Counted from the first letter of the stretch, positions 1-21,466 are shown. The stretch is 32,000 bases of DNA from Nitrosopumilus sp. (GCF_025699255.1 NZ_JAILWA010000002.1:99985-131984), one strand, 5' to 3'. Numbers and translations: made by a program. The notes: generated by a model not told the origin, from the letters alone.

Positions 1-2
1 AC

Positions 3-1535: not shown

Positions 1536-1608
1536 TCGCAATTCATTCCTAAAATTCAGCTTGTACTAGTCTAGAATATTTATACAACTTCTAGATGAAT
1601 AATGTTAC

Positions 1609-3135: not shown

Positions 3136-3255
3136 ATCTAAAAATCAGTTCATATTTTCTTAAATTAAGAAATACAGTAAATAATACTATTAAAAGTAGC
3201 TTGTTATTTTCATTACTAACAGGCGTTTAAGTATCAAACAATCTTGCATTGATTA

Positions 3256-5017: not shown

Positions 5018-5180
5018 TTATGAATTTTAATTTTTGCTACTTGATAAATGGTACTATTCTTGAAACTAATAATTCATCAGAATCCTTTTTTAGTAAATTT
5101 AACGTAATAATGCTACCAAGCAAGCAGGACGATCTATTGCTCTTGTCATACAGCATATGTGAACCTGTTTGCCTGAAAAT

Positions 5181-5951: not shown

Positions 5952-5994
5952 TTACATTCTCGCCTATAGTGTCATTGATTAAATTTACTAACTA

Positions 5995-6753
5995 TCAGAT
6001 CTTGGTTCCACATTCTTCACAAAATTTAGAGCCTTCTTTATTTACAAATCCACAACTTGAACATTTTCCTGGTTGAGCTGCTATTACAATATCTGGATTT
6101 CCTAAAAGAACAACTTCTCCAATCTTCTTAATACTATTCCATGGAATACTTCCTTCTGTGCCATCTTCTTTAGTTATTACTAAAACCATTGTCTGTGTAG
6201 AATCAATACCCACTTGTTTTGCAGTTCCAACTCTGTTTGCATTTTCATCATATACAATTTTTCCTTCAATTGATGTAACTGAAGTTGCTGGTCCTGGTTG
6301 TGTTGCAGTTTCTTGTGGAGCAGATGTAGACTGTGGTGTTGTTTCTGGTACTTGCTGTGTTGAAACTTCTGGTTGTGGTGCACTTTGAACTTGTGGTTCT
6401 AATGGTTTTGCACTTCCAACTTCTCCTGCTTCGTCTTCTTTTTTAAATTCCCTGTATTCTGCAATTGATGCATTACAAGAATTGCAAATGTATTGACCTC
6501 GTTCTGCAAGAATTAAGTTCTCTGCAACCTCTTCATTTGGGTTCTCATATTCAATTTTTGGAGGGCCTTCAAATTCCTTCTCACAAGTATTGCAAAAATG
6601 TTTAGTAATTTTATCGGCATCTAATCTTCCAATTGGTGCTAAAAATAGATCTGGTCCACCTAAGTTACCCTTCATCTGTTGTTCATCGGTAACTGAAGCC
6701 ATAACATAACCGCCAGATCCTCGTAATTTTTTCAGTCTAGATTCTGAACTCAT
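5995..6753 (-). CDS. zinc-ribbon / PRC-barrel domain protein
   Basis: CNTCEKEF...CNSCNAS zinc-ribbon pairs, a P/Q/T/S-rich linker, and a PRC-barrel-like segment (IEGKIVYDENANRVGTAKQVGID...IPWNSIKKIGEVVLLG). The C-terminal double zinc ribbon is CSSCGFVNKEGSKFCEECG. Confidence 0.7.
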   Translation of the reverse strand: MSSESRLKKLRGSGGYVMASVTDEQQMKGNLGGPDLFLAPIGRLDADKITKHFCNTCEKEFEGPPKIEYENPNEEVAENLILAERGQYICNSCNASIAEYREFKKEDEAGEVGSAKPLEPQVQSAPQPEVSTQQVPETTPQSTSAPQETATQPGPATSVTSIEGKIVYDENANRVGTAKQVGIDSTQTMVLVITKEDGTEGSIPWNSIKKIGEVVLLGNPDIVIAAQPGKCSSCGFVNKEGSKFCEECGTKI

Positions 6754-6868
6754 GAATAAGTTTTATCAAAACGTCATTTAAGTATATATCAAAATTAATT
6801 TTCCGACAAAAAATATGGTGTTAATTCTGGTGAACGTTTTTAGGTACGTCCAATAAAATAATGTTAGA

Positions 6869-7195
6869 ATGGCTGTAACACAAATTTCAGATGCAAAATC
6901 ATGGGAAGTAGATGTGATAAATTCTGACATTCCTGTTTTTGTAGACTTTTGGGCCGAATGGTGTGGTCCATGTAGAATGGTAGGTCCAGTTGTTGAAGAA
7001 CTGGCAGCTGACTATGAAGGCAAAGTAAAGTTTGTCAAGGTTAATGTTGATGAAGCCAATGAACTGGCATCAAAATACAACGTCTTTAGTATTCCAACTT
7101 TAATCCTCTTAAACAAAGGTGAAATAGTTAGCCAGCAAGTGGGAGCAGCATCTAAAGAATCATACCAAGGTATGATTGATAGAGCACTCGCATAA
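6869..7195 (+). CDS. trxA: thioredoxin
   Basis: 108 aa with the WCGPC active site (FWAEWCGPCRM) and the typical SIPTLILL cis-Pro region. Confidence 0.95.
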   Translation: MAVTQISDAKSWEVDVINSDIPVFVDFWAEWCGPCRMVGPVVEELAADYEGKVKFVKVNVDEANELASKYNVFSIPTLILLNKGEIVSQQVGAASKESYQGMIDRALA

Positions 7196-7261
7196 CTTTC
7201 TACACGTTTTTCCTCTTTTTTGATCCTAAAGTAATTAATATTCCAAAAACCGAGTGAGGTT

Positions 7262-7807
7262 ATGTCATTTGGTGAAGTAGATACACTGAACATGCTCTTT
7301 GACAAACTTCAGAGTTTGTTTGACGAGTCTCAGGGATACTATGAATCATTTCTAGATACAAACAACATGTACAAGAAAGGACAAATCAGTGACAAAGAAT
7401 TCTTTCAAAAATTAGGTGATTATACAGTTGCATATTCTGCTTTAGAATTTCTAGCAATCAAAGTAATCTTTGAATTAAAAAAATCAATTGGTACAGGCTC
7501 TGGAAACACACAATCTCCAGGATTGATGCCAGGGATGGGCCAACCTGGAATGATGGCAGGCGGAATGGGTCAACCTCCACGAGCAGGAACTGCACAAAAC
7601 CCAGTAGGTGGAGGTCCACCGGGAATTGTTTCTGCACAAGAAGCATTTGGTGACGTTGGAACATTACCATCACCTGATCCTTCATTAATGCCAAGACAAA
7701 CAATATCTCCACAATCTATTCCACAAGATGGAAATGGATGTTCTTCATGTGGTGCACCACTTCGAGCAAATGCAAAGTTTTGCACAAAGTGTGGCGCTAA
7801 AGCATAA
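7262..7807 (+). CDS. hypothetical protein with G/P/M-rich linker and C-terminal double zinc ribbon
   Basis: Helical N-terminus, then a low-complexity PGMGQPGMMAGGMGQPP region. The C-terminus is CSSCGAPLRANAKFCTKCG. Confidence 0.65.
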   Translation: MSFGEVDTLNMLFDKLQSLFDESQGYYESFLDTNNMYKKGQISDKEFFQKLGDYTVAYSALEFLAIKVIFELKKSIGTGSGNTQSPGLMPGMGQPGMMAGGMGQPPRAGTAQNPVGGGPPGIVSAQEAFGDVGTLPSPDPSLMPRQTISPQSIPQDGNGCSSCGAPLRANAKFCTKCGAKA

Positions 7808-7831
7808 ACCTAGTAATTAAAAATAATTTTC

Positions 7832-8209
7832 TTATTCTTGTGTTGTTCCACATTCAGGACAGAATTTTGCAGTAGCAGAAAGACTCGTACCACATTCTGA
7901 ACAAAACTTTCCATCTGAAACTTGTTCGTTGAATGCATTTCCAACTAGTGTTGAACTCTTGACTGCACCTGATGGAACATATTTTTCATCATCAATCAAA
8001 ACTGGTTCAAAGTCTTGCTCTACCAAATATGTCATCATTCGTGGAACTCCTTTTCCTTCATTCTTTGGATCTGGAACTGAATCTCCTAACCAGAATGCAA
8101 ATCTCATTAGAGTCAACTCTGGAGTAGAAAATGCAAGAGTATGCTTTGACATGTAATCTTGTGCAGCTTTTTTGCCGTCAAAACCTTCCATGATGATAAT
8201 ATTTTGCAT
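7832..8209 (-). CDS. hypothetical protein with C-terminal double zinc ribbon
   Basis: 125-aa ORF ending in FCSECGTSLSATAKFCPECG. It is the last core gene before the island. Confidence 0.65.
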   Translation of the reverse strand: MQNIIIMEGFDGKKAAQDYMSKHTLAFSTPELTLMRFAFWLGDSVPDPKNEGKGVPRMMTYLVEQDFEPVLIDDEKYVPSGAVKSSTLVGNAFNEQVSDGKFCSECGTSLSATAKFCPECGTTQE

Positions 8210-8222
8210 TTATGTATAATAG

Positions 8223-8232
8223 TTTCTGGAAA
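8223..8232 (+). repeat. left copy of 10-bp direct repeat TTTCTGGAAA (candidate att core / target duplication)
   Basis: Identical 10-mer at 19903-19912, immediately next to the tRNA 3' end. A 10-bp match could be chance. Confidence 0.35.
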
Positions 8233-8322
8233 CTATTTTTGACTCCTCTGTAGGCACAAAACGTGGTATAAAACGTGATATTTAGCGTGACCTTAACAAA
8301 ATGATTTCATTTGGGAATATTC

Positions 8323-8336
8323 ATGAAATATTTCAT
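8323..8336. promoter_or_regulatory. perfect 14-bp palindrome ATGAAATATTTCAT nested between GGGAAT (8313-8318) and ATTCCC (8335-8340)
   Basis: Read directly; the sequence equals its own reverse complement. It lies in the non-coding left end of the island. Confidence 0.6.
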
Positions 8337-8460
8337 TCCCATGTTTTTTCATTACATAAATATGCCAAAAATCTTATTTTAAGAGTTCATTTTATGATCA
8401 TTTTTTTCGTGAACACATACATTTGTAAAATAACCATTTTTTATTTTTCTATGCCCACAA

Positions 8461-8595
8461 AAATGGAAAATGTGAACCCACAAAATAATTCACACACTTA
8501 AAAAAATGAAAATGAAAACCATTTTGAAAAATAAAAATGAATGAGGAAAATGGTTTTATGTAAAATGACAGGATATATCATTTTTTATAGAAATG
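8461..8595 (+). repeat. iteron-like cluster of same-strand AAATG/AAAATGRAA motifs
   Basis: Eight AAATG copies on one strand start at 8461, 8468, 8504, 8510, 8535, 8548, 8563 and 8591. Three inverted CATTT copies lie nearby. Confidence 0.5.
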
Positions 8596-8636
8596 GAATG
8601 ATCAGAATAATGTCCGATGGTGTGGATCCCTTAAGT

Positions 8637-8815
8637 CATTCTGAACAAATTTCTTAGGCTTTTCATGCTGTCGGACATTGACATTACAAGAAATAACGAT
8701 ATTGTGAAAAATTGTACAAATCAACTCCAAATTGACGCTTAATGCATCATTTTGAGGCAACATTGTATCCGTAAGATTTTAAAACTAACATGAGAATCAT
8801 TTTTTGTTCAGAATG
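8637..8815. repeat. perfect 13-bp inverted repeat CATTCTGAACAAA (8637-8649) / TTTGTTCAGAATG (8803-8815)
   Basis: Read directly. It is part of a set of TCAGAATG/CATTCTGA sites upstream of the integrase. Confidence 0.7.
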
Positions 8816-8880
8816 GCATTGGGAATGAGTCTAAATCAATTCGTATCAAATCACGATACAATCAATTCCATTCTGAGGGA

Positions 8881-10242
8881 GTGGAATACTTGGTCAATAT
8901 ACTAAATGCAAAAATTCCATCCTCTCATTCAAGATTTGATGACAATGTTACACCAAAAATAGATATTCAGAATGAAATTTTGAAATTATTAAAAATAAAA
9001 CCTCACACACCTACTGAACTAGCAAATCATTTTCATCAAACAAGAGAACAATTTTCAAAAAGTCATATCTATCCTCTACGAGATTCTAAAAAAATTGAAA
9101 AGGTTAATGGCTCTCATTATTATCAATTAGCAAAGCAAAAAAATACAATTCTTACAATTCAAAAACAGTTACGCTCAGAATCAGATATTTTCAAGACAGA
9201 GTTATTCAAAAATTGGACTAGAAAAAACCATGCCAAATTTGAACATAACAATCAGACACGTTTTGCTAGAATTGTACTGGGGTTTGTGACTCCAAAATTC
9301 AAAATTCATCCTGATGACATTACCAAAGAAAACTGGAAAGAAATCATTCCAAGTATGGTTGATGCCTTAATAGAAGTTGCAAATTATGAAGTAGTAGATG
9401 GTGAACCAAACTGGTCAAACAGACAGGCAATAAGACACGCCCTAAAATATGGACTTGGAATAGACATTAGTAAAGACGAAGGAATTGAATTAAGAATAAG
9501 CGGACAGAAACCAAAAGAAAAATCATCAGATTTGCACATCACACCTGAACAAATCACACAAGCTAAAAAATTACTGTTGAAACATTATTCCATTGAAGAC
9601 TATCTAAAATTTGGAGTCAAGACATGGACTTTTGTCAGACCATCAACAGTTTATTTAATAGAATTGGCAAAAATGGAGTTCATTGATCAGTTAGTTGAAT
9701 ATGTGGAAGATACAGACGGTGTAAAATTAACCGATGAAAAAGTTGTAGCATATGCAAAATTTAGAGGTGATAAAATCTACTCTTATGTTAGAAGAATATG
9801 CCACATTGAAGTCCATGAAAACAAAACCCATGATGATTTTGATAAATACATTTTGGATTCTGAATTTGTTGAACCATTAGAACAATTTTACAATACCAGA
9901 GTATCTAGAGGAAAAAAATATCTATTTTGGGAAGATAATGATACTAAATTTGAATCTAAAACATATGATAGAATTTTGACTAGTTCAGTAGCTCGAGATA
10001 ACAAATTTTTCAAAAAAATTCTATCTATGATAGGTTTTAAGAAATCAGATTTTGGAATTTATTTTAGAGCCAATTATGGTTTTAGACATTTCGGAATCCA
10101 GATGTGGCTTATTGCAACTGACTACAATTACAATTTAGTTTCTGAAATGTCTCATGAAGGTACTGAAACCTTGAAAAAATGGTACGGAAAAAGAACACAG
10201 AAGGATTTCCAGAGAAAAATTAAAGGTGTGATTATGAATTGA
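8881..10242 (+). CDS. int: tyrosine recombinase / integrase with N-terminal winged-helix region
   Basis: Catalytic-domain pattern seen by eye: FVRPSTVYLIELAKMEF (Arg box), VHENKTHDDFDKYI (beta-hairpin Lys), NYGFRHFGIQMWL (x-x-x-R-H box) and MSHEGTETLKKWYGK (His...Tyr nucleophile). There is no in-frame ATG near the 5' end, so the GTG at 8881 is the likely start. Confidence 0.8.
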   Translation: MEYLVNILNAKIPSSHSRFDDNVTPKIDIQNEILKLLKIKPHTPTELANHFHQTREQFSKSHIYPLRDSKKIEKVNGSHYYQLAKQKNTILTIQKQLRSESDIFKTELFKNWTRKNHAKFEHNNQTRFARIVLGFVTPKFKIHPDDITKENWKEIIPSMVDALIEVANYEVVDGEPNWSNRQAIRHALKYGLGIDISKDEGIELRISGQKPKEKSSDLHITPEQITQAKKLLLKHYSIEDYLKFGVKTWTFVRPSTVYLIELAKMEFIDQLVEYVEDTDGVKLTDEKVVAYAKFRGDKIYSYVRRICHIEVHENKTHDDFDKYILDSEFVEPLEQFYNTRVSRGKKYLFWEDNDTKFESKTYDRILTSSVARDNKFFKKILSMIGFKKSDFGIYFRANYGFRHFGIQMWLIATDYNYNLVSEMSHEGTETLKKWYGKRTQKDFQRKIKGVIMN

Positions 10243-10326
10243 TGATAATCTTTTATTATTAATTGTCAAAATTTGGTTCAATTTTAGTTGGGAGCACGTT
10301 GAAGGGGGGGATATAGTTAGGGACGA

Positions 10327-10342
10327 AGATTTTGCACTAAAT
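10327..10342 (+). promoter_or_regulatory. 16-nt motif AGATTTTGCACTAAAT, copy 1
   Basis: 15/16 identical to 11407-11422. It ends 68 nt before the ATG at 10411. Confidence 0.55.
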
Positions 10343-10410
10343 CCTAAAATTCAGAATTATGAGAAATCATCTAAAGAATATCTTAAATTATTAACAGAAT
10401 ACTATGAAAT

Positions 10411-11400
10411 ATGTCTGAAGATAAAAAAATTAACATCAAAGACTACTTGCCTAAAAGAAATCCTGATTCCAAATTATGGAATAAAGTTCAACAACTATCT
10501 AAGAAAGAGGATGGAGTGATTGAAGCCATAGACATAATTTTCAAGCAACAGTATGAACTACCAGAAGACAGCATAGAATTAATAAAAAAACTTGCTAAAA
10601 AAGAACAATCAAAAAATGTGAGACTACACATCGCAAAAAATCTTGAAAAATATGATCACATTCCATTTGGTATGTATGCAGATCTGTTTGACATTCTTTC
10701 AAATGATCCTGATCATGAGGTACAAGAACCCCTTAAAAATACGTCATTATACAAACTTGGAGAAAGTTTTCTAGATGGGTTTAAAAAAATACAGCCAGAA
10801 TCACTTACAAATTCACTGAAATTACTCTCACAAAAACAGGAAGAGGTAACAAACGCACTTCAGCCTTTCTTAAAAATTCATGATACTAAAATGGTGAAAC
10901 AAATTACTCAGATGCAAAAAGTGTTAGAAACAATAAACTTAGACAAAATCAAAATCCCAAAGATTTCGTTTGATATTGATAATGCATTACTAAAAGAGTT
11001 AGAAAAATCTAAACCTGAAGGATTTAGTGTTGATACTATACTTACAAAAGCTGCTGAGGCTAAACCCGAAATCAAAGAAGCAGTAGAATCAAAAAACAAT
11101 ATAGAGATAGCTCATAAAACATTAGATGACGTATCTGATCAAATAGAATCATTACAAAAAACTACTGAAAGAAATTTCAAAGATGTAGGAGACAAACAAG
11201 AAGAGCACCATACAGAACAGATGGCTGAGCATCAAAAAACTCGTGATGAATTATTGATAGACAATGGTAAATTACAAGAAAAAGTTGACACACTACAAGA
11301 AAAAGTCCAGAACAGTTGGAAAGAACCACGAAATTGGTCTATAGGATTTGCCATTTCCATAATAGCAAGTCTAGTAATATGGGCAATACAGAGTTTTTAG
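10411..11400 (+). CDS. hypothetical HEAT-like / coiled-coil protein with C-terminal membrane anchor
   Basis: 329-aa ORF with HEAT-like segments (VRLHIAKNLEKY, LSNDPDHEVQE) and a long K/E/Q-rich helical region. The C-terminal hydrophobic helix is WSIGFAISIIASLVIWAIQSF. Confidence 0.65.
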   Translation: MSEDKKINIKDYLPKRNPDSKLWNKVQQLSKKEDGVIEAIDIIFKQQYELPEDSIELIKKLAKKEQSKNVRLHIAKNLEKYDHIPFGMYADLFDILSNDPDHEVQEPLKNTSLYKLGESFLDGFKKIQPESLTNSLKLLSQKQEEVTNALQPFLKIHDTKMVKQITQMQKVLETINLDKIKIPKISFDIDNALLKELEKSKPEGFSVDTILTKAAEAKPEIKEAVESKNNIEIAHKTLDDVSDQIESLQKTTERNFKDVGDKQEEHHTEQMAEHQKTRDELLIDNGKLQEKVDTLQEKVQNSWKEPRNWSIGFAISIIASLVIWAIQSF

Positions 11401-11406
11401 TCGCTC

Positions 11407-11422
11407 AGATTTTGCGCTAAAT
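11407..11422 (+). promoter_or_regulatory. 16-nt motif AGATTTTGCGCTAAAT, copy 2
   Basis: 15/16 identical to 10327-10342. It ends 69 nt before the ATG at 11492. Confidence 0.55.
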
Positions 11423-11491
11423 ATGTAAATAAAAAATGAGGATTTGGTATGTCTAGATAAAATTTTATTCTCAAGTTCTTGGAAAAAAACA

Positions 11492-12595
11492 ATGAGAGAG
11501 AAAATAGAAGTAGAGATTTTATGGACATTGAAATCCTCCCCTTCTCATGTTTTGAGTACTTTGGACATGGTTGAGAAAAATAATCGATTAGAAATTAATG
11601 ATGATTTAAAAGAAAAACTTCGATTCTTAGCTGAAGAAAAAATCATCGACACGCGAGTTATTCAAGGAAGAGGAATACATTATCTTATCACAAAAAAAGG
11701 GAATGATTTGATTTGGAATGGTTCAACTTGGCAACAAATTTTTAATTTAATTAATTTGATTCATCCAGAAAAATATACGGGTAAAGAAATAGTCAGAATA
11801 ATCAAAAAACCTGAAGAGGAAGTGTGGAAAGGAATTGAATATTTGAGAAATGTTCGCAAGTATATTGATGCTTTTGATGAAAACAATGAACGATATTGGA
11901 TCCTTTCAGAAAAAGGGGAAGAACACTCTATTGATAAAAATACTAAAAACTTGGATGAAAACATTAATCCTGAAAAAGAATATCAAAATGGAAAATCAAT
12001 ACATACACACATCTCTCAAAATCCAAAAAGTTATTGGAATGAACACAAACCGATGATCTTACTTTCCATATTCATTACCATTGGTGGAGGTCTTTTGGTA
12101 GGAGGATTTTTTTATTATTTGGCATTATATGACGAAGAATCAGATATTTCCAAACCAGAAATTCAGGTAACTGATTTGAATGCACTTGGAGGGATTGTTG
12201 AAGGAAACAAACTGTATTATTCATACGAACCTACAAGTTTAACTCCAAACGGAACCAAAGATGAAATATTTACCCTCAAAATATCAAATACTGGAAAAGC
12301 CAATGCTGATGATTTTTGGATAGATATGTATTCTGAGCCTCAGGGTTTGTGGTTTGATTTCCAAACTTCAGCAACAATCCAAGACGGTAACAGCATACCG
12401 TGTCAACAAAAAAAGTCGTATTGTACTATTGGATTAGTACCCAAAGAATCTAGCAATATGTTTGTGGAGTACAAAGTCCAGTTTAATCATAAATTATATC
12501 AAGAAATTGCAGATGAAAATCCAAGATTATTTTTCAATTATGGTTTTGATGAGGGACAGGAACAAACTATTGAAATAATTTTGAAATTTGATTAA
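11492..12595 (+). CDS. hypothetical membrane-tethered protein with two winged-helix-like N-terminal modules, one TM helix and a beta-rich C-terminal domain
   Basis: The ORF track starts at TTG 11444, but the first ATG (11492, MREKIEVEILW) is more plausible. wHTH-like segments are EILWTLKSSPSHVLST...IHYLITKKG and TGKEIVRIIKKPEEEVWKGIEYL...YWILSEKG. The TM helix is MILLSIFITIGGGLLVGGFFYYLALY. Confidence 0.65.
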   Translation: MREKIEVEILWTLKSSPSHVLSTLDMVEKNNRLEINDDLKEKLRFLAEEKIIDTRVIQGRGIHYLITKKGNDLIWNGSTWQQIFNLINLIHPEKYTGKEIVRIIKKPEEEVWKGIEYLRNVRKYIDAFDENNERYWILSEKGEEHSIDKNTKNLDENINPEKEYQNGKSIHTHISQNPKSYWNEHKPMILLSIFITIGGGLLVGGFFYYLALYDEESDISKPEIQVTDLNALGGIVEGNKLYYSYEPTSLTPNGTKDEIFTLKISNTGKANADDFWIDMYSEPQGLWFDFQTSATIQDGNSIPCQQKKSYCTIGLVPKESSNMFVEYKVQFNHKLYQEIADENPRLFFNYGFDEGQEQTIEIILKFD

Positions 12596-12662
12596 TACTT
12601 AGGTTTAGCATACTATTTGACATAACCTTCTCTTTAAGAAGAAGAACGGGTTTCATTTCATA

Positions 12663-13697
12663 TTGGATGAAATTGAAGAAAGCGAATGGTATTTGCTACA
12701 AAACTATCGTGAGCGAATTTTGCCATTAAGGGGAATTCTTCTAAATCTTGATTTTACATCCATTGAAAAATATGATGAGGGTACTTTGGAACTCTTTATT
12801 CGTGGTGGAAAAAAGAAAATTAAATTCAATGAAGAATCTGAAAAACAATTCAAATCGATCATACAAACCGACATTATTTCTAAACTGATGATGTTGGTAG
12901 AAGATGCAGTTATTTTTATGGAATCACGAAGACGAAATGTCAGTTTTTACAGTATTGTTACAAATTCGGACATAGATGTAGGACTTGTGATCAAAGAATT
13001 TTTTGAAAATCTTGAGAAATTATCCACAAATGAACTATGGGAAATAATGAGTTATGTTGACGTCAATTCCACAAATTGGGAAACTTCTGAAGATGCACGT
13101 CTAGTTGAAAAGTATCTTACAATCAACATCTCTGAAATGCGTCGATTGTTATCAGAACTAAAAGAATTTAGCACTACTAATCACCCTCTGTTTAAAAGAT
13201 TCAAGCATGCAGGATTTCCTGTATTTCCAGCTGTGAACTCTCCCAAATCACTTGATTTTATGAAAAATTTTGATCATTGCTCAGCTGTACTTATGAAAGA
13301 AAATATTTTGGATGATGTTGTGTATGTTCCATATTCTGATGATGTAATTAAATCATATCACATTATTGCATCAGGACTTCAAAAGATCATTCATGACATA
13401 GTAAATAACAGAATAATTACAATTGAACGACAAACCAGTGGAATGTTGCCAAACGTTTCGCATGATTCAGAAAAACTCAGTGTTGAAGAATGGAATAGAT
13501 ATGGTGAAATTAGAAAAAAATTTTATGAGCAAAACCCATTACGAAATGATCTTCCTAGAACTCTCAATTTGCCAAAACCTGATAAAGAAAATATGAAGTG
13601 GTATTGTGGATTAGATGATTTCTTAACTAGAAGTATTCAGTTTAAGGAATCTCAAAACAAAGAGATGTACAGGTTAAATGCCTCTACTGATTATTGA
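12663..13697 (+). CDS. hypothetical protein (344 aa, no recognisable domain)
   Basis: Long uninterrupted ORF with a coding-like composition. It needs a TTG start because there is no early in-frame ATG. Confidence 0.6.
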   Translation: MDEIEESEWYLLQNYRERILPLRGILLNLDFTSIEKYDEGTLELFIRGGKKKIKFNEESEKQFKSIIQTDIISKLMMLVEDAVIFMESRRRNVSFYSIVTNSDIDVGLVIKEFFENLEKLSTNELWEIMSYVDVNSTNWETSEDARLVEKYLTINISEMRRLLSELKEFSTTNHPLFKRFKHAGFPVFPAVNSPKSLDFMKNFDHCSAVLMKENILDDVVYVPYSDDVIKSYHIIASGLQKIIHDIVNNRIITIERQTSGMLPNVSHDSEKLSVEEWNRYGEIRKKFYEQNPLRNDLPRTLNLPKPDKENMKWYCGLDDFLTRSIQFKESQNKEMYRLNASTDY

Positions 13698-13706
13698 CGA
13701 GGTATT

Positions 13707-13928
13707 TCACACTAGATCCAATAGTTTTTTCAAAGTTTTTTCTTTTAACTTCAGTGGAATTTTATATTCTAACTTCTTTTTGAGATAAAAAAACATTCTT
13801 CTAGAAATTCCAAGTTCCAATGCTTTCTCCAAAGTTAATTCCTCAATTATTTCTCGCAATCTCTTTTGAAAATTCACATACTGAATGGTATTTTCTTTGA
13901 ATGCTCCCAATACCTCAGATTGCTCCAT
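13707..13928 (-). CDS. small helix-turn-helix-like protein
   Basis: 73 aa. LEKALELGISRRMFFYLKKKLE resembles an HTH DNA-binding segment. The frame stays open for a further 37 codons upstream without a start codon. Confidence 0.5.
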   Translation of the reverse strand: MEQSEVLGAFKENTIQYVNFQKRLREIIEELTLEKALELGISRRMFFYLKKKLEYKIPLKLKEKTLKKLLDLV

Positions 13929-14022
13929 CTCGTTTGATTCCTTACCAATATAATGAATTGAAGATTCATCAATTTCAAGCCATTTTCTACTTAAAAGCCA
14001 GATTTCACCGTCTGATTTGGTA

Positions 14023-14187
14023 TCATTGTGCCTGACATACTCTGAAAATACTTAATTCATAGGCTTCCAGTATTCCTTTGAATCCATAGAATCTTTGTTT
14101 GGATAGCTTCTCCCTGTTTTGTACTCTAGAAATTCTTGGTATTGTACTAGATCCATTTTGTGGTTTTGGCGGATTTGAAAAATTCAT
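14023..14187 (-). CDS. small ORF (54 aa), possibly the N-terminal part of a frameshifted gene continuing into 13707-13928
   Basis: Hand translation gives MNFSNPPKPQNGSSTIPRISRVQNREKLSKQRFYGFKGILEAYELSIFRVCQAQ. Its 3' end overlaps the open upstream extension of the HTH ORF in another frame. Confidence 0.3.
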   Translation of the reverse strand: MNFSNPPKPQNGSSTIPRISRVQNREKLSKQRFYGFKGILEAYELSIFRVCQAQ

Positions 14188-14303
14188 AATTTAATCGTCC
14201 TTTTAAGTCAGAATTACCATGTTATATTGAGACGCAAGATCATGACCGTCACGTCATAGAATCTTGTCAAGTGTGACGGCTTGTGTTTCTTTTTTAAAAA
14301 AAA

Positions 14304-14435
14304 TTATTGTGGTACAAATGTTTGGCATTCGCACACTAATCCATTAGGCAATGTCTTTGAACATTTACCTTCAGCAGGATGATCTTTTCTGAAATGTTCA
14401 CAACTTGTATTGTCGCATATGTCGTAATCTCCCAT
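14304..14435 (-). CDS. Cys-rich micro-protein (43 aa)
   Basis: Hand translation gives MGDYDICDNTSCEHFRKDHPAEGKCSKTLPNGLVCECQTFVPQ. It has five Cys plus His residues, and a T-run follows the stop codon. Confidence 0.4.
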   Translation of the reverse strand: MGDYDICDNTSCEHFRKDHPAEGKCSKTLPNGLVCECQTFVPQ

Positions 14436-14875
14436 ATTTTGTCAATTCTTATCTTTAGATTTTAATCTGGGGCATGATACAATAACCCGATCAAATAGAG
14501 ATCTGTTAGATGTAGCATTATGAACCCTGATTCTGTTAACTAATCTTTGAGATAACTAGGATCCAAGGAAATTGAGCATTTGGATACCTTTGAGTGAGAT
14601 AACAGTTTATTCATAAAATATTTGGAGAAAAGAAACACTACACTAAAAATCACAATTATTCAAAACAAGATTTCAGATATTGGTAAAATCAAACCTAAAA
14701 TAAAACAGATTGATCTTAATGCAGACAGAAATAGAATGTGGCTTGATAAAATTAGAAATATAAATAACAAAAAGCTTGATTGATTCATACCGATTACAGT
14801 CAATCATTTTAATTTGAATATAATGTAACAAAAAATGAAATAAATAACTTATACTAGTTTTATGACAAACATTTT

Positions 14876-15781
14876 ATGAATAAAATGAATTTAGTCATTC
14901 TGATTTTTTTGTCTGTTTTTAATATGATTGGAATCTTTCCTACAATTGATGCACAAATCCTAGAACCTGAATGTATTAATCCAGATGGAAAACGTGAATT
15001 AGATTTGAGATTTGATACAGGAGTTCAGGAATTTAATGAATTAACAAAAGAATCCGTACTGACTTTGGATTGGAGACTAAAAGATGGTTTTGGAATATCA
15101 AAACCATTTGATGTTGTTTCACGAGTACATCCTGGTAGTGGGGCATCCATATACAATGTTACTGCTGCTCATGAAGGTGCAGATTATTCAATAACTGTTA
15201 GAGATACAGAGCATCATATCAATCCATTACATGTTGTTCCTGAACATCTTTGGCCTTTTGAATCCTATAGCATCCCTGCATTTTTGGAAATTAATGATGA
15301 TGTGAAACTATGTGGATGGGATTTTGAAGGCCATAAATTTGGATTTTTTGCAGAAAATCCAAACTGGAAAGTCACATTAATTGCCTCTGAAAGCTCATTT
15401 GAAGAAATGTCAAAAATATTAGAAGGGGGAAGACCAAGATTTGAAAACAATACCATCGTGAAATTTGATACTCAAATTTCACATAGTGATGAATACATTT
15501 CAAAATATTTTCTGTATGGCATTATTCCATTCTTCCCAATGTTGTTAATCTTTGCACATTTCAAATATCTACGTCATGAAAGACCAATTTTACAAATTAC
15601 CTATTTTACAGGAGTTTCGGTGTTGATTTTGACCGGATTAATTGCAGTAGGTTCAACCATTGTTTCACTAACTCTATTAGAGATCATCACTCTTTCTAGT
15701 ATCCCTGTTTACATTGTATCATTTGTAATTACATTAAGAAAAGTAGTTAAAAAGAAAAATTTTGAAAAGGCACATTTTTGA
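14876..15781 (+). CDS. hypothetical secreted/membrane protein (signal peptide, ~190-aa extracytoplasmic domain, C-terminal TM helices)
   Basis: The signal-like N-terminus is MNLVILIFLSVFNMIGIFPTIDAQ. C-terminal hydrophobic helices include YGIIPFFPMLLIFAHF, ITYFTGVSVLILTGLIAVGSTIV and ITLSSIPVYIVSFVITL. Confidence 0.7.
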   Translation: MNKMNLVILIFLSVFNMIGIFPTIDAQILEPECINPDGKRELDLRFDTGVQEFNELTKESVLTLDWRLKDGFGISKPFDVVSRVHPGSGASIYNVTAAHEGADYSITVRDTEHHINPLHVVPEHLWPFESYSIPAFLEINDDVKLCGWDFEGHKFGFFAENPNWKVTLIASESSFEEMSKILEGGRPRFENNTIVKFDTQISHSDEYISKYFLYGIIPFFPMLLIFAHFKYLRHERPILQITYFTGVSVLILTGLIAVGSTIVSLTLLEIITLSSIPVYIVSFVITLRKVVKKKNFEKAHF

Positions 15782-15803
15782 ATGAGATGTAAAATTATGA
15801 AAT

Positions 15804-17195
15804 ATGACCCTAAATGATATCTTAATTGAATTAAAAGATATTTTTCATTCCATTGACATTCGAGTATTTGCACATAAATCTGATGGTGTGTGGAAAAATA
15901 TTTTTACAATTATTAGATTTAGACATGAAACGGTAGAAGAATTAAAAATAATTCATCAGGAATTGATTGAGAAATGTGGTAGTTTAATTGAAACAGACAA
16001 ATTCAGAGTAGGACTATTTAATTATCCTGTTGACAGATGGTCAAAAATTGCAGATGATTTATCCAAAAAATTTCTTTGTCTGAATGATTCATTTGGAATA
16101 AATTTTGATAATGCAATTACCTACAATCATAATTATTCAGATCCACATTTCAAGCCTGAAAATTATGTTTACAAAGATTGGAAATGCTTTTCATTTAACA
16201 ACGAATCAAATACACAAAAACCAAACTATTCAGATGAATTACGAAGTAATATGCTTGAAAATCATTTCAGGTATTCAGACAATTATTTGTCTGCAATATT
16301 TGAATATGGAAAATATGATTTTCAAAGTAATCCTTGGATCAAGACATTTGTGCCTATTTTCTTCAAAATTGAAAAAATTGAATTTGATCATGATAAAGTC
16401 GATATAGAATATTCTGCACATGAGCAAAAAAATATCCAAGTCGGATTAAATTTTTACAAATCTCGTGAATATAGAAGTGATGATGAATTTATCCAACAGA
16501 AAATTGAAAAAATACCGTTGACAGGGGGTTCAGAAGTAATTCAGGATACGATAACAATGAAACTTGATACAAAAAATGTTGGAGAATTTTTTGAGTTATT
16601 GGTAATAAAAAATAAAAAAACTTTGATTGAATCAAAAGAAGGATGCCTAGATGAGTATTGGAAAACAAGAACCGAATATACTAATCCCACATATTATGCA
16701 TTTGAACAATTTGTAGAGTTTGAAGAATTAGAACGAATGTTATTACAATTCAAATCTAAAAAGATCAACAGAGATTCTGAAGTCTTTGAACGTGGAGTAT
16801 CTTGGCTTTTGAGTTTACTTGGAATCCCAAACCTAATACTCGGGGAGTATGAACGATTGGGAAAGGGTCATGATCAAACATCTACTGATATTTTGGCAAG
16901 TTTTGACACAGATAAGATATTTTTGATAAATGTAACAATTGGCTTGCCTAAGCAATCTGATTTTGACAGAGAACGAGAATATCGGGAAAATATAGAAGGC
17001 AAAATCACTAACAAAAAAATAGAAATTCATTCAATCTACTTTACAGGAAAAGATGCTACCGAATCACTAGCATCTGCAACTGCAAATAATGTTATATTAG
17101 TAGGGAAAAACAATATTCAAAACATACTTGAGTATCTCAAAAAAGGTAATTTAGAAAAAGCTCGTCAAATTATTTTACAAGAGGATAGTTTTTGA
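15804..17195 (+). CDS. hypothetical 463-aa cytoplasmic protein with restriction-endonuclease-like (PD-(D/E)xK-like) C-terminal region (tentative)
   Basis: It starts 22 nt after the previous stop. The C-terminal segment FERGVSWLLSLLGIPN...TSTDILASFDTDKIFLINVTIG resembles the Mrr-type helix plus D...(D/E)xK strands, but the canonical Lys is not evident. Confidence 0.7.
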   Translation: MTLNDILIELKDIFHSIDIRVFAHKSDGVWKNIFTIIRFRHETVEELKIIHQELIEKCGSLIETDKFRVGLFNYPVDRWSKIADDLSKKFLCLNDSFGINFDNAITYNHNYSDPHFKPENYVYKDWKCFSFNNESNTQKPNYSDELRSNMLENHFRYSDNYLSAIFEYGKYDFQSNPWIKTFVPIFFKIEKIEFDHDKVDIEYSAHEQKNIQVGLNFYKSREYRSDDEFIQQKIEKIPLTGGSEVIQDTITMKLDTKNVGEFFELLVIKNKKTLIESKEGCLDEYWKTRTEYTNPTYYAFEQFVEFEELERMLLQFKSKKINRDSEVFERGVSWLLSLLGIPNLILGEYERLGKGHDQTSTDILASFDTDKIFLINVTIGLPKQSDFDREREYRENIEGKITNKKIEIHSIYFTGKDATESLASATANNVILVGKNNIQNILEYLKKGNLEKARQIILQEDSF

Positions 17196-17196
17196 A

Positions 17197-17865
17197 ATGA
17201 TCGACGGTAAAATAATTTCCCTTGCTTTGGCAATAACTAGTGGATTGGTCTATACTCGTGTCTTTGAGAATGAATTCTTTAAAGATATCATACTTGTTGC
17301 AATTCCTGCAATAATTGGATTGTTTGCAGTGAAACGTGTACCTAACGAATGGCAACAATATAGATTCAAGGTGGCTTTAAAAAAAGAAATTATAGACACA
17401 TTTGTAAAATCTGTTAAAAAAAGTTTTGTGGTTCATGATACTGCACATATACAATTAGTGCAACATTATTCTGTGTCAGAACAACCAATAGATCCAACCA
17501 CAGGAGGAGTTACACATAATGTAGTTTTTCCTACGGAACCAAATGAACAACCAATGATGGCATTAAAAGATGAATATAATGAATTTAAAAACGAACTCAA
17601 AGCAATAAAGTTAAACGGTGAAACATTAGTTTCAAAAATGCGATTATACTTTGATAGTGAATTGGTAGCCGAAGAATTTTCAAAACTGAATATTCAAGCT
17701 GGAAAATGTTCTCAATACATAAGACAAGGATTTGAATCTAAAAATAAAGAAAGTTTTTTAATGAATCTAAATGCTTTTTCTAACGAAGTAAAGTTATGGA
17801 GAGACTTATCTGATAAATTTGAAAATACTCTTGCCAAACATAAAATAAAAAAGATTTCAGTTTAA
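17197..17865 (+). CDS. hypothetical protein with two N-terminal TM helices and a helical cytoplasmic domain
   Basis: Its ATG lies 1 nt after the upstream stop, suggesting translational coupling. The TM helices are IISLALAITSGLVYTRVF and IILVAIPAIIGLFAV. Confidence 0.7.
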   Translation: MIDGKIISLALAITSGLVYTRVFENEFFKDIILVAIPAIIGLFAVKRVPNEWQQYRFKVALKKEIIDTFVKSVKKSFVVHDTAHIQLVQHYSVSEQPIDPTTGGVTHNVVFPTEPNEQPMMALKDEYNEFKNELKAIKLNGETLVSKMRLYFDSELVAEEFSKLNIQAGKCSQYIRQGFESKNKESFLMNLNAFSNEVKLWRDLSDKFENTLAKHKIKKISV

Positions 17866-18100
17866 TTTGTTAAAATGATTGAATGTTTTTTAACCATTAC
17901 AACAAATGTCATATTTTCATACTATTGGTTAAACTTTAGGATTATTTCATGTGCTTGTCCCTGCAAAAAATTTATTGTATGTATCAACTCAAGCCCGTTG
18001 TAATTTTTGTGCAAATGGATTTTACAAATTTAATGAAATGTAGAAAAATCGTGGTATTGGATATGATAATGAAAAGAAAATGGAAAATTGTGCGATTCTG

Positions 18101-18155
18101 TTCCAATCCAATCTGATTTGGTGTGGAATTGATTGGAAAAGAGGATTTGGATTGG
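18101..18155. promoter_or_regulatory. cluster of CCAATC / GATTGG repeats with alternative pairings
   Basis: TTCCAATC (18101-18108) is the perfect complement of GATTGGAA (18131-18138). CCAATCCAATC (18103-18113) nearly pairs with GATTTGGATTGG (18144-18155). The cluster lies 80-130 nt upstream of the protease start. Confidence 0.5.
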
Positions 18156-18233
18156 TATGAAGTTCAGAATGATGAAAAGTATGAACCCGAAAGCGATTTG
18201 TAAAGATATGTGTTTATAAAATATTCAAAACAA

Positions 18234-19109
18234 ATGATAATTGTCATGGTTAGTATAATTAAACAAATAAAAAAATCAGTTGGATTTATTTATGTCAAAA
18301 ATGGAAATGTGTTTCATCCAGCTGGAACTGGTTTTTTTGTTAGTGTAGCTACAGGTTATGATTCTTCCAAAAGTTATTTTTATTTTGTAACTGCAAAACA
18401 TGTAATTCAAAAAAAAGATGGAACATTTTATGATATTGCAGTTAGATTGAATACTTTTGATAATTCTTCCAATCTTCTTCCTTTGCCCATGAACCAATTA
18501 CATATCTTTACTCATGATGATGAAGATGTAGACATAGCTCTTTTTCCAATGATTCCAAATGAAAAAATATATGATATTTTAACAATAGGTTCCGACATAC
18601 TTAGTACAGAAAAAATTATCGAGGATGAAAAAATTGAAGAAGGTGGAGATGTATTATTTTCAGGATTATTTTCTAGCCATATTGGAAAACAACGAAATCA
18701 ACCAATAGTACGTTTTGGAAAAATATCTTTAATTTCTGATGAAAAAATCACTTGGAAGGTTGATGATGATCCGCCTAAACTAGTTGATTTGTATTTGATG
18801 GAATGTCAATCTTATGGAGGAAATAGTGGGTCTCCTGTTTTTTTTAAATTAGATAGATTTAGAGAATCTAGTGAAAACAAAATAAAGATGCATGAAAAAT
18901 ATTATCTTGCAGGAGTTATGACTGGAAGCTTTAATCAATCTAGAAAAATAGAGAATATTGAAACAATAAATGAACAATTTTCATGGCAAAATATTGGAAT
19001 TGCAGCAGTAACACCTGCTTACAAATTACATGATATTTTATTTTCAGATGAATTAAATAAAATTCGAAAGGATAATGATGATTTAGAAAATGCTAAGAAA
19101 AAAGTTTAG
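18234..19109 (+). CDS. trypsin-like (chymotrypsin-fold, S1-type) serine protease, no signal peptide
   Basis: Catalytic triad motifs are YFVTAKHVI (His), DVDIALF (Asp) and GGNSGSPVFF (Ser). The ORF track begins at GTG 18210, but ATG 18234 or 18246 is more likely. Confidence 0.8.
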   Translation: MIIVMVSIIKQIKKSVGFIYVKNGNVFHPAGTGFFVSVATGYDSSKSYFYFVTAKHVIQKKDGTFYDIAVRLNTFDNSSNLLPLPMNQLHIFTHDDEDVDIALFPMIPNEKIYDILTIGSDILSTEKIIEDEKIEEGGDVLFSGLFSSHIGKQRNQPIVRFGKISLISDEKITWKVDDDPPKLVDLYLMECQSYGGNSGSPVFFKLDRFRESSENKIKMHEKYYLAGVMTGSFNQSRKIENIETINEQFSWQNIGIAAVTPAYKLHDILFSDELNKIRKDNDDLENAKKKV

Positions 19110-19173
19110 ACAGAAAAATAGTTTTTCCCAGTACAAAATTCACATAAACTTTGAACTAGAATCTTAACAATGG

Positions 19174-19656
19174 TCATGGTAAAAGATCTTGTAGGTTTTC
19201 TATAGTTACAAAAGAAATTATTCCATAAGACATCAATACAAGAAACATCATCAAAATGGTGGGTTTTGCTTTTTTGATATCTTCTTTTTCTTCATCAGTC
19301 TTTCCAGTTTTAAAATAAAAATAAATGAACCAGCCTACAGAAAACAACATAATTCCACCTCCAAAAAGAGATTGTCCTAGTGGGTCTTTCATTAATAATT
19401 TTAAACCTACAATCGATGTAAGTGCAACTGGAATTAACACCTCCATAGATAAAATCAAAAATTTATTGACACCTTTTACATTCCGTATTGCCATTAGAAA
19501 TAATGCAATTCCAGTTAATCCTGCAGCTGGAACAAAATCCTTTATTTCAGAATCTAATTTTCTCCATTCTTCAATGAAAATATTTGAAGCATAAACATAA
19601 CCCATAATCCCTAAAATCATTAGAGATAAAATCAGGATTTTCTTTGGAGTTAACAC
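19174..19656 (-). CDS. hypothetical polytopic membrane protein
   Basis: 160 aa with about five hydrophobic helices. It has a GTG start as drawn and is the last ORF before the tRNA. Confidence 0.6.
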   Translation of the reverse strand: MLTPKKILILSLMILGIMGYVYASNIFIEEWRKLDSEIKDFVPAAGLTGIALFLMAIRNVKGVNKFLILSMEVLIPVALTSIVGLKLLMKDPLGQSLFGGGIMLFSVGWFIYFYFKTGKTDEEKEDIKKAKPTILMMFLVLMSYGIISFVTIENLQDLLP

Positions 19657-19902
19657 AATTGTATTGATGTAATGTTTGATCTTAAATCTTTACGACCGCC
19701 GTCATATTTTCATTCGTAAAAGGGGGACTTTGCCTTTTTACTCTTTGTCGATAATCTCTTTTGTATCTCTAAAAAATTCTAACATTATGTTTATGAACAA
19801 ATAATTACAAAATTATTATGACCACACTATATTTTTTAGATTTTTGTGTTAGATCTATCGATTCTCATATATGCTTTAAAATTAATAATCACGTTTCACA
19901 GA

Positions 19903-19912
19903 TTTCTGGAAA
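19903..19912 (+). repeat. right copy of 10-bp direct repeat TTTCTGGAAA
   Basis: Identical to 8223-8232. It lies 3 nt from the tRNA-Ala discriminator base. Confidence 0.35.
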
Positions 19913-19915
19913 AGG

Positions 19916-19987
19916 TGGACCGGGAGGGAATCGCACCCTCGACATCCTCGTTGCGAACGAGGCATTATACTCCTAAACCACCGGCCC
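19916..19987 (-). tRNA. tRNA-Ala(CGC): tRNA-Ala (anticodon CGC)
   Basis: The reverse complement is GGGCCGGTGGTTTAGGAGTATAATGCCTCGTTCGCAACGAGGATGTCGAGGGTGCGATTCCCTCCCGGTCCA. It has a 7-bp acceptor stem with the G3:U70 alanine identity pair, an A73 discriminator, and an anticodon stem CCTCG/CGAGG with loop TTCGCAA. The T stem is GAGGG/CCCTC, and CCA is not fully encoded. Confidence 0.9.
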
Positions 19988-20062: not shown

Positions 20063-21466
20063 ATGACTTATGATACCATAATTACTGATTCACATGTCAT
20101 TCTTCCTCAAGGGATGGTTGAGAAAAATATCCTAATTGATGAGGGAAAAATTGTTGGATTTACAACTGATACACCTGTATGTGATCATAAAATCAATGGA
20201 GCAGGACTAGTTTCTGTACCTGGACCTATAGACACTCATGTTCACTATGGAGTTTATTCTCCAATTAACGAAGCTGCAAAAACTGAATCTCATGCAGCAG
20301 CAATAGGTGGAATTACTACAATGATGAGAATGCTTAGACTAGGTGATCCTTTTTCAAATTCTTTGCAAGCTCAGCTTGATTCTGCTTCAGAAAATCATTA
20401 TGTAGATTATGCTTTACATGCTTCAATTTTTACACCAGAACAAATTGATGAAATGAATTTGTGTGTTGAAAACGGAATTACGTCATTTAAAATTTACATG
20501 AATCTTGGTGGTGAAGTTGGACATGTATACATGGACATGCCACCAAATTCTCCGAAACTTGTTGCAGCTGAAGTAAATGTTACTGATGAAATAGTTGAAC
20601 AAACAGTAAAGACTGCAGCTGAACTTGGATGTCCTGTACTAGTTCATGCAGAAGACTATGAATCATGTGGTTGTGGAATCAAAACTGCAAGGGAAAAACA
20701 TCAGGATGGATTGTCAGCTTGGTCTTCAAGCCGTTCTCCTGAATTTGAAGCTAAGGCAATCAAAACTGTATCAAAATTTGGTAGAGATTACGATTGTGTG
20801 ATTTACTTTGTTCATATTGGTTCAGAACGTGCACTAAAGCAAATTGAAGAAGAAAAGAAACTTGGAACAAAAATTTTTGTAGAGACATGTCCTCACTATT
20901 TGACATTATCTTACGAGAAACAATCAGGCTATTTGGCAAAAGTCATGCCTCCAATTAGAACTGAAAATGACAGAAAAGCAGTTTGGAATGCATTATCTAA
21001 TAACCAAATTGACACAATAGGTACAGATCATGTTGCAAATCAACTAAAACTAAAGCTTGGTGGAGATGATGTTTGGAGTGCTCTTGCTGGATTTCCTGGA
21101 ATAGGAACTGTACTTCCTATTTTACTTAATGATGGAGTTAACCAAAAGAAGATTTCTCTAGAACAGTTTGTTCGATTTACGAGTCAAAATGCAGCTCAAA
21201 TTTTTGGAATGTATCCCCAGAAAGGAACACTGGAGAAAAATTCTGATGCAGATGTTACTATGCTTGATTTGAAGAAAGAGAAAACTGTTACTTCGGATCT
21301 GTTTGGTGGATTCTCTGACTATATTGTATATGAAGGAAGAACTCTAACTGGATGGCCTGTCAAAACAATTGTTAGAGGCGAGTTAGTTGCAGAAGACTTT
21401 GAAGTAATAGGCAAACTTGGTCATGGAAAACTAGTTGAAAGACAAATTAACTTGTTTTCCAAATAA
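20063..21466 (+). CDS. cyclic amidohydrolase (dihydropyrimidinase / hydantoinase / dihydroorotase family)
   Basis: Metal-binding PGPIDTHVHYG, SFKIYM (carboxylated-Lys region), VHAED and the IGTDH Asp motif. The 467-aa length fits this family. Confidence 0.8.
   Translation: MTYDTIITDSHVILPQGMVEKNILIDEGKIVGFTTDTPVCDHKINGAGLVSVPGPIDTHVHYGVYSPINEAAKTESHAAAIGGITTMMRMLRLGDPFSNSLQAQLDSASENHYVDYALHASIFTPEQIDEMNLCVENGITSFKIYMNLGGEVGHVYMDMPPNSPKLVAAEVNVTDEIVEQTVKTAAELGCPVLVHAEDYESCGCGIKTAREKHQDGLSAWSSSRSPEFEAKAIKTVSKFGRDYDCVIYFVHIGSERALKQIEEEKKLGTKIFVETCPHYLTLSYEKQSGYLAKVMPPIRTENDRKAVWNALSNNQIDTIGTDHVANQLKLKLGGDDVWSALAGFPGIGTVLPILLNDGVNQKKISLEQFVRFTSQNAAQIFGMYPQKGTLEKNSDADVTMLDLKKEKTVTSDLFGGFSDYIVYEGRTLTGWPVKTIVRGELVAEDFEVIGKLGHGKLVERQINLFSK

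Follow-up and report, generated by a model that had tools for sequence, protein, structure and literature searches.

Do three tightly spaced genes of no established family, carried on a genomic island of Nitrosopumilus sp., form one defence system, or does one of them act alone? The question is raised by a 32,000-nucleotide (nt) stretch of DNA (GCF_025699255.1 NZ_JAILWA010000002.1:99985-131984), hereafter the window, from the start of which all window coordinates are counted. From the DNA alone, its genes A, B and C had been proposed to be a single module in which a cytoplasmic sensor or nuclease-like protein is combined with membrane proteins, an architecture matching abortive-infection and defence modules (hereafter the sequence-only reading). 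Few cells in the ocean are as abundant as marine ammonia-oxidising archaea, and most defence catalogues have been built from bacteria; to our knowledge, the antiviral repertoire of these archaea is almost unknown. Our analysis argues that the trio is very probably not a system and that gene B is an autonomous unit, which we regard as a probable defence protein. On balance, we slightly favour the fuller proposal, in which B belongs to an uncatalogued family and serves in defence as a stand-alone sensor-effector protein, with A and C as separate cargo.

Three genes under purifying selection

14876-15781, plus strand: gene A, 301 amino acids (aa), exported or membrane protein
15804-17195, plus strand: gene B, 463 aa, cytoplasmic protein
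17197-17865, plus strand: gene C, 222 aa, membrane-anchored protein

The three open reading frames (ORFs) share the plus strand and are separated by 22 nt (A-B) and 1 nt (B-C), exactly as first read. Protein A carries a hydrophobic N-terminal segment (residues 2-26) and two to three C-terminal transmembrane (TM) helices within residues 208-291, in agreement with the signal peptide and C-terminal helices ascribed to it. Protein C, for which two N-terminal TM helices had been suggested, has a single strong one (residues 26-50), the other being a weaker hydrophobic stretch before it; protein B has no hydrophobic segment. Scans of Pfam, NCBIfam, PADLOC (PADLOC-DB v2.0.0) and PHROGs gave zero matches for A, B and C, which bears out the impression that the trio belongs to no established family, and PDB sequence searches returned nothing significant for genes A and C, nor for the ORF at 8881 and protein P0068 described below. 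The ratio of nonsynonymous to synonymous substitution rates (dN/dS) against the nearest relatives is 0.13-0.28 across the trio (A, 0.19-0.28; B, 0.13-0.24 against its closest relatives; C, 0.25). All three are thus under purifying selection and are therefore real genes.

The surroundings of the trio differ from the first description. A hairpin followed by a T-run had been seen 3' of gene C: the T6 run (17886-17891) is there and is the sole terminator-like feature, whereas the hairpin (-8.4 kcal/mol) is no better than chance (z -0.97 against shuffled sequence), and terminator calling was also negative. The 440 bp upstream of gene A, taken as non-coding, hold instead a pseudogene of a protein-primed PolB (pPolB) at 14556-14819, to which we return below.

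Gene B recurs without genes A and C

Co-occurrence was analysed over 13 independent genomic contexts of B-family genes, window included (the others are designated by locus numbers, L001 and so on):

Window: B 100% identity; A present; C present
L008: B 82% identity; A as a two-fragment remnant; C absent
L009: B 70% identity; A present (69%); C absent
L014: B 69% identity; contig begins inside B, so that the upstream side is not covered; C present (82%), beyond an additional gene X
Nine other contexts: B at most 67% identity; A absent; C absent

The B family comprises 38 close clusters (29-100% identity, all ~461-470 aa), and an exhaustive profile search gave 551 representatives at E<=1e-3, of which 276 reach E<=1e-10; most are full-length proteins of 450-500 aa, so that the family counts at least 551 sequence clusters. 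Gene A has only two relatives among 5.8 billion proteins, both in pPolB-bearing elements, one of which lacks B; gene C has seven.

Could A, B and C be components of one defence or abortive-infection system, in which B signals to, or is anchored by, A and C? Their common strand and close spacing would suit such a system, as would purifying selection on every member and the return of A beside B in L009, with only remnants of it in L008, and of C near B in L014, where profile comparison exposed a 5'-truncated B homologue at the contig start. Nevertheless, the full trio is found in the window only, the B family is ~100 times larger than that of A or C, and the nine contexts with a more divergent B never have A or C nearby. 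A or C accompanies B solely at B identities of 69% or more, and this confinement of both pairs to close relatives fits the shared descent of one DNA segment and not a functional three-gene system. Each partner, moreover, leads a life apart from B: in L010-12 A closes a pPolB element that lacks B, C adjoins a NERD-domain protein without B in L013, and in L008 A has decayed while B is still intact. Finally, in L014 the 217-aa gene X separates B from C and is bounded by 9-nt TTAGAAKGA copies; the B-C junction of the window looks like the product of recombination between such copies, with deletion of X, and its 1-nt spacing like a recent deletion scar. A single three-component system is hence quite improbable in our view.

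The best reading of A and C is therefore that of independent membrane-protein cargo genes, separate from B, the three being probably co-transcribed in this strain by accident of a recent rearrangement. The sequence-only reading had itself named the lack of co-occurrence elsewhere as one outcome that would speak against a joint system; what was found is a milder form of it, the full trio occurring nowhere else and pairs persisting among close relatives. The idea of one system made of a cytoplasmic sensor or nuclease with membrane partners is accordingly abandoned here in favour of gene B as an autonomous unit.

Domain architecture of protein B

15804-16331, plus strand: N-terminal domain, residues 1-176, alpha/beta, proposed sensor
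16332-16658, plus strand: middle beta-sandwich, about residues 177-285
16659-17195, plus strand: C-terminal PD-(D/E)xK-fold domain (Mrr/restriction endonuclease (REase)-like) with E329, E350, D362 and N376-V377-T378, proposed effector

The full AlphaFold model, computed with the family alignment, has a predicted local distance difference test (pLDDT) of 89.1 and a predicted template modelling score (pTM) of 0.72, and falls into three parts. Modelled alone, the N-terminal domain reaches a pLDDT of 92.4 and a pTM of 0.89, and Foldseek gave it no credible neighbour in the PDB (best E 0.18, probability at most 0.14, TM-score at most 0.25). Its signature S-I-D-x-R...W...I-R-F-x-x-E is kept in 169 family members, including the TIR variants described below, with D18 conserved in 137 of them, R20 in 144, W30 in 155 and R38 in 121. 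For the strand-rich middle domain, Foldseek pointed to carbohydrate-binding modules and to the Ig/FnIII-like domains of GH3 enzymes.

The C-terminus reads FERGVSWLLSLLG...TDILASF...IFLINVTIG, with NVT at the place of the canonical Lys motif. In the model, its elements follow the alpha-beta-beta-beta-alpha-beta order (helix 324-338, strands 343-345, 363-367 and 371-378, helix 384-400, strand 407-414), and Foldseek matched it to the small subunit of R.BspD6I (2p14; E 5.7e-4, probability 1.0, TM-score on target 0.48) and to the PD-(D/E)XK nuclease of the haloarchaeal virus HGTV-1 (probability 1.0, TM-score on target 0.48). The assignment of the predicted C-terminal domain to the PD-(D/E)xK fold is reasonably supported, and the Foldseek check, which had been proposed for all three proteins, yielded for B a fold for the C-terminal domain and no neighbour for the N-terminal one. 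It also upholds the earlier perception of an Mrr or PD-(D/E)xK-like segment devoid of its canonical Lys.

Of the catalytic signature Glu / Asp / (D/E)-x-K, protein B has the first two elements and lacks the third. E329 and D362, placed as the helix Glu and the strand-2 Asp, are kept in 149/158 and 157/158 members, respectively, and together with E350 they are almost universal in the family. Among the same 158 members, the third motif is mostly N/A/G/S-C/V-T; 16 have S/D/N-C-K and 13 have D-C-D. Nuclease activity is uncertain because the canonical Lys and the acidic residue of the third motif are missing. A relocation of the catalytic Lys to K383 was considered and found unsupported (Fisher p 0.29). 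In a Pfam scan of 64 diverse members, none reached the cut-off for Mrr_cat or NucS_C, and each profile gave one sub-threshold match (E 0.004 and E 0.003, respectively).

Effector exchange among relatives of B

It is typical of prokaryotic immune proteins that a constant sensor module is combined with exchangeable effectors, nuclease or TIR. Three relatives of B (P0065, P0066 and P0072) share its residues 1-~290 (E 1e-47 to 1e-59) and carry a TIR domain in place of the nuclease-like domain, as assigned by Pfam TIR_2 (up to 1e-18) and by PADLOC TIR models (e.g., PDC-S66 and ThsB). In PADLOC, these variants match only via their TIR domain, and the distant REase-type members have zero relevant matches.

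A further protein, P0068 (581 aa), shares the N-terminal ~290 residues and has another C-terminus, which ends in LRDEGNKSAH, an Rx4-6H HEPN-like motif recognised by eye only.

Genomic neighbourhoods and distribution

All 11 informative contexts of B-family genes hold hallmarks of defence or of mobile elements:

L001: integrase
L003: integrase
L004: transposases and Fic
L005: AIPR and transposase fragments
L006/7: AbiJ, DpnII/MboI, MT-A70, ParB and HsdM
L008: Schlafen-AlbA
L009: pPolB element
L016: SIR2-TPR, Hypoth_Ymh, DUF4145 and terminase
L017: two Eco57I/MmeI-type restriction-modification (RM) genes and a UvrD-nuclease, beside a TIR variant
L018: complete Type I RM system and PemK
Window: trypsin-like peptidase matching the PADLOC candidate PDC-S45 (E 5e-21)

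B has no conserved partner, and its sole recurring neighbour is protein X. The distribution of the family is sporadic and, so far, mainly archaeal: a search of 185,579 species-representative genomes gave two matches, one in a Methanophagales metagenome-assembled genome (MAG) and one in a Bathyarchaeota MAG, and the named members belong to Nitrosopumilus and to a Thermoproteota MAG. The two distant members tested against plasmids gave no match.

In the Bathyarchaeota MAG of L016, an 840-aa SIR2_2 and TPR protein (611-3130, minus strand) has Hypoth_Ymh, DUF4145 and a terminase gene in its vicinity, and a 352-aa protein that has only the C-terminal domain in common with B is encoded about 6-9 kb from it.

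A proposed role for protein B and its alternatives

A defence role is the best reading of B because of its TIR-swapped relatives and of its RM, abortive-infection (Abi), toxin and mobile-element neighbours. The defence function first suggested for the trio is hence retained for B by itself, and the idea of a three-gene module is not. We propose a model in which the N-terminal module, whose conserved surface comprises D18, R20, W30 and R38, would recognise a cue of invasion by a virus or a mobile element and would then switch on the C-terminal PD-(D/E)xK-fold effector, which would attack DNA. In the sister proteins, TIR would be the equivalent effector and would deplete NAD+. The outcome could be either direct restriction or abortive infection. 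B would be a single-gene system moving between islands on its own, and A and C would adjoin it through their common place in the cargo end of a decayed mobile element of the pPolB type.

Several observations weigh against this model. The fold matches of the C-terminal domain are modest (TM-score about 0.48 on target), the canonical Lys is lacking, and most members begin the third motif with a non-acidic residue (NVT, ACT, GCT). Neither the B-family profile nor a profile of the C-terminal domain only gave a sequence-level link to any solved nuclease in the PDB. Guilt by association draws on about a dozen contexts, which is a small sample and not a genome-wide enrichment statistic, and no defence catalogue searched (PADLOC-DB v2.0.0) lists the family. 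Moreover, the A-B and B-C adjacencies each recur twice, so that some functional link within a sub-clade is conceivable, and the presence of X beside B in three contexts makes a two-gene arrangement conceivable in part of the family.

Protein X is soluble, measures ~183-217 aa, has no match in Pfam or PADLOC, and shows the conserved stretch ...P(D/L)WW..YNK.KH.LP. It is absent from the window, and its copies beside B are the following (coordinates of the respective loci):

L014, 1332-1985: X
L008, 3584-4135: X
L001, 7250-7894, minus strand: X

X may be an occasional partner or regulator of B. The candidate that gene C is a divergent form of X was rejected (hhalign probability 0.2%).

Two other explanations have to be weighed against a stand-alone immune protein. 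In one, B would serve the maintenance of mobile elements, as a recombination or resolution nuclease or as an accessory of replication or partition, and would not be immune. Every occurrence of the gene is indeed within an island or a mobile element, in the company of integrases (L001, L003), transposases (L004, L005) or a pPolB (L009, window), and PD-(D/E)xK domains are a common part of nucleases that act in resolution and recombination. The family is, however, bound to no single element type, its distant members adjoin chromosomal RM systems, and no relative was found in IMG/VR viral contigs or in annotated phage and virus genomes. Furthermore, its sister proteins swap the nuclease-like domain for TIR, which in prokaryotes is a conflict-system effector and not a DNA-maintenance domain. 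A maintenance function is thus unlikely.

We give a similarly small chance to the other explanation, in which B and X pair up as a two-gene module (toxin/antitoxin or sensor/regulator) and the window copy of B has lost X and is deregulated or decaying, or in which, alternatively, the C-terminal domain is catalytically dead and B acts by binding only. X directly adjoins B at B identities spanning 46-82%, the B-C junction of the window resembles a deletion of X, and the missing Lys and variable third motif would suit a dead domain. Yet X is missing from 10/13 contexts, stands in divergent orientation in L001, and the window B is intact, with the low dN/dS given above, while the near universality of E329, E350 and D362 argues for a functional site. 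A stand-alone sensor-effector protein is still the reading that we favour for B.

Extended to the whole family, our proposal is more tentative: with somewhat less than even confidence, we suggest that B proteins are widespread, probably archaea-centred, single-protein immune sensors, in which a constant N-terminal module, made up of the domain without structural relatives and the beta-sandwich, would detect infection and drive interchangeable effectors: non-canonical Thr-for-Lys PD-(D/E)xK, TIR and possibly HEPN. If this is true, archaeal immunity would gain a sensor fold and a defence family that are both new, with pPolB-type elements as their carriers in ammonia-oxidising archaea. With at least 551 clusters outside Pfam, NCBIfam, PADLOC and PHROGs, an N-terminal domain that is predicted with confidence yet has no solved neighbour, and an exchange of REase-like and TIR effectors, the B family offers a concrete, testable candidate for a new archaeal immune sensor.

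A strain-specific island at tRNA-Ala

8223-8232, plus strand: left 10-bp direct repeat TTTCTGGAAA, left island junction, where the empty-site alignment breaks
8233-19912, no strand: strain-specific island of about 11.7 kb at tRNA-Ala
8881-10242, plus strand: ORF of 453 aa, N-terminally winged helix-turn-helix-like, possible divergent tyrosine recombinase by eye
19903-19912, plus strand: right 10-bp direct repeat TTTCTGGAAA, abutting the tRNA
19914-19987, minus strand: tRNA-Ala(CGC), integration target (ARAGORN; Rfam tRNA 56.9 bits)

Genes A, B and C had been described as cargo of a tRNA-adjacent integrase island. The repeat TTTCTGGAAA occurs twice in the window and no more, and alignment with the empty sites of L023 and L057 breaks exactly at it. 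We compared 80 metagenomic loci carrying an orthologue (82-95% identity) of the amidohydrolase gene at 20063-21466. The distance from the Zn-ribbon gene (7832-8209) to the amidohydrolase gene is 173-430 bp in the ~45 loci with enough upstream DNA, against 11,854 bp in the window, and no island gene is present in any of the 80 loci. GC content is about 0.30 in the island and about 0.34-0.36 in the flanks. The island thus shows the hallmarks of a tRNA-targeting element, with tRNA adjacency, direct repeats and an empty site in relatives, and agrees with the earlier description of A, B and C as tRNA-adjacent cargo. An attachment (att) site copying the 3' half of the tRNA was not found, the flanking repeat lying just outside the tRNA.

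The integrase part of that description could not be demonstrated. The ORF at 8881-10242 shows C-terminal motifs (YGFRHFG...MSHEGTETLKKWYG, HxxR...H...Y-like) read by eye only, has no support from Pfam, NCBIfam or the PDB, and has no similarity to the thaumarchaeal integrases of L001 and L003; judging from these motifs, it might represent integrases that have diverged very far.

Most relatives have nothing inserted between the Zn-ribbon gene and tRNA-Ala, but other strains carry unrelated inserts of ~0.9, 1.0, 1.5, 2.2, 3.0 and 4.0 kb there. The site is an integration hotspot in Nitrosopumilus populations. Loci with such other inserts among L019-L098 are, e.g., L031, L019, L036, L058, L042 and L040.

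Relics of pPolB-type elements

14556-14819, plus strand: pPolB relic 1, pseudogenised 3' end of a protein-primed PolB (last 88 codons, two in-frame stops)
17884-17925, plus strand: degenerate copy of the element-end motif, following gene C
17984-18091, plus strand: pPolB relic 2, weak (one in-frame stop)
18210-19109, plus strand: gene D, trypsin-like serine peptidase, separate candidate defence gene
19174-19656, minus strand: gene E, 160-aa multi-pass membrane protein with 3-4 hydrophobic segments
19689-19726, plus strand: conserved 38-nt motif TTTACGACCGCCGTCATATTTTCATTCGTAAAAGGGGG, putative right end of a pPolB-type element

By tblastn, relic 1 is 51% (over 88 codons) and 48% identical to the pPolB of L009 and L010, respectively (E 2e-20 and 1e-17), and relic 2 matches residues 410-445 of the L010 pPolB at 44% identity (E 6e-4). 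Relic 1 lies just upstream of gene A and relic 2 just upstream of gene D. The 38-nt motif TTTACGACnnCCGTCATATTTTCATTCGTAAAAGGGGG is shared by three loci (window 19689-19726, L014 2728-2765 and L009 7788-7825), with zero matches expected by chance. In L014 it immediately follows the C homologue, in L009 it closes the contig, two contigs terminate precisely with it, and it is absent from IMG/VR viral contigs. The motif may mark where an element ends or where recombination takes place. The degenerate copy after gene C forms a repeat with 19677-19713 at 73% identity, and it matches the L014 copy at 34/45 positions (hand count, L014 and L009 alignment).

A relic just upstream of each cargo block suggests two tandem decayed pPolB elements. 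In the simplest reading, each would consist of a polymerase relic, cargo and an end motif, the first cargo being A-B-C and the second being peptidase D with membrane protein E. Such a hotspot, where decayed pPolB elements stack and deliver defence cargo, would bear on how casposon-like elements spread immunity genes. Gene D matches Pfam Trypsin_2 (E 8e-6), phrog_7688 (E 6e-16) and, in PADLOC, PDC-S45 and LmuA (E 8e-11). The PADLOC scan of the island suggested at the outset thus drew a blank for the trio and brought up D, a candidate for a second, independent defence gene in the island.

Just left of relic 1, a 43-aa Cys/His-rich ORF (14304-14435, minus strand; CDNTSCEHF...CSKTLPNGLVCEC) resembles a zinc-ribbon miniprotein. 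Three consecutive plus-strand ORFs at 10411-13697 (329, 383 and 344 aa) have no significant library match, the first showing weak coiled-coil-type matches (ApoLp-III, phage tail).

Among marine metagenomes, the pPolB element of L010, L011 and L012 (about 1-9000) carries SRA-ScoMcrA, HNH, ParB_N, two unknown genes, PDDEXK_1 and, finally, the A homologue. It resembles a defence-loaded casposon-like element; Cas1 was undetected in the fetched part. L009 was considered as a complete linear element with terminal inverted repeats, and none were found.

Comparison with known systems

The elements that carry gene B and its relatives recall the family-1 casposons of Thaumarchaeota, which are pPolB-bearing integrated elements (Krupovic et al. 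2019, PMC6563490). As in these, the pPolB of L009 and L010-12 is preceded by three small genes and followed by element-specific, nuclease-rich cargo, and in the window pPolB relics survive immediately upstream of A and of D. Unlike in family-1 casposons, no Cas1 or casposase match was found in any island ORF, and the repeat of the window, 10 bp long and beside a tRNA, differs from the target-site duplication of 13 bp reported for the casposon of N. koreensis (PMC6563490). The pPolB shares only ~25% identity with its counterparts in the archaeal viruses His1 and His2.

Protein B itself may be compared with the Mrr and type II-IV REase domains (PF04471 Mrr_cat; 2p14), with which its predicted C-terminal domain shares the core fold, the helix Glu (E329) and the Asp at the start of strand 2 (D362). 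Some family members also carry S/D-x-K, and the sub-threshold Mrr_cat match noted above came from a distant member. It departs from them by its N-V-T in place of (D/E)-x-K and by the lack of a Pfam gathering score and of a sequence-level PDB match. Moreover, the domain forms the tail of a 463-aa three-domain protein without a methyltransferase partner.

The wider design of B is closer to that of modular immune proteins. Constant sensors joined to Mrr-like, TIR or SIR2 effectors are found in the APAZ-effector partners of short Argonautes (SPARTA-type), in LmuA of Lamassu and in Avs/NLR-like proteins, and Aga_REase-TIR was among the PADLOC model names met in scans of distant B-family members. 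Like these proteins, B has a constant region (1-~290) joined to alternative REase-like or TIR C-termini, and its genes lie in defence islands or mobile elements with a patchy distribution. Unlike SPARTA, Lamassu and Avs, it comes without an Argonaute, SMC/LmuB, a STAND ATPase or another known sensor. Its constant region matches no profile, its N-terminal domain matches no solved fold, and it appears to act alone. By analogy, B would thus work in the manner of the modular sensor-effector immune proteins, with a sensor module that would itself be new.

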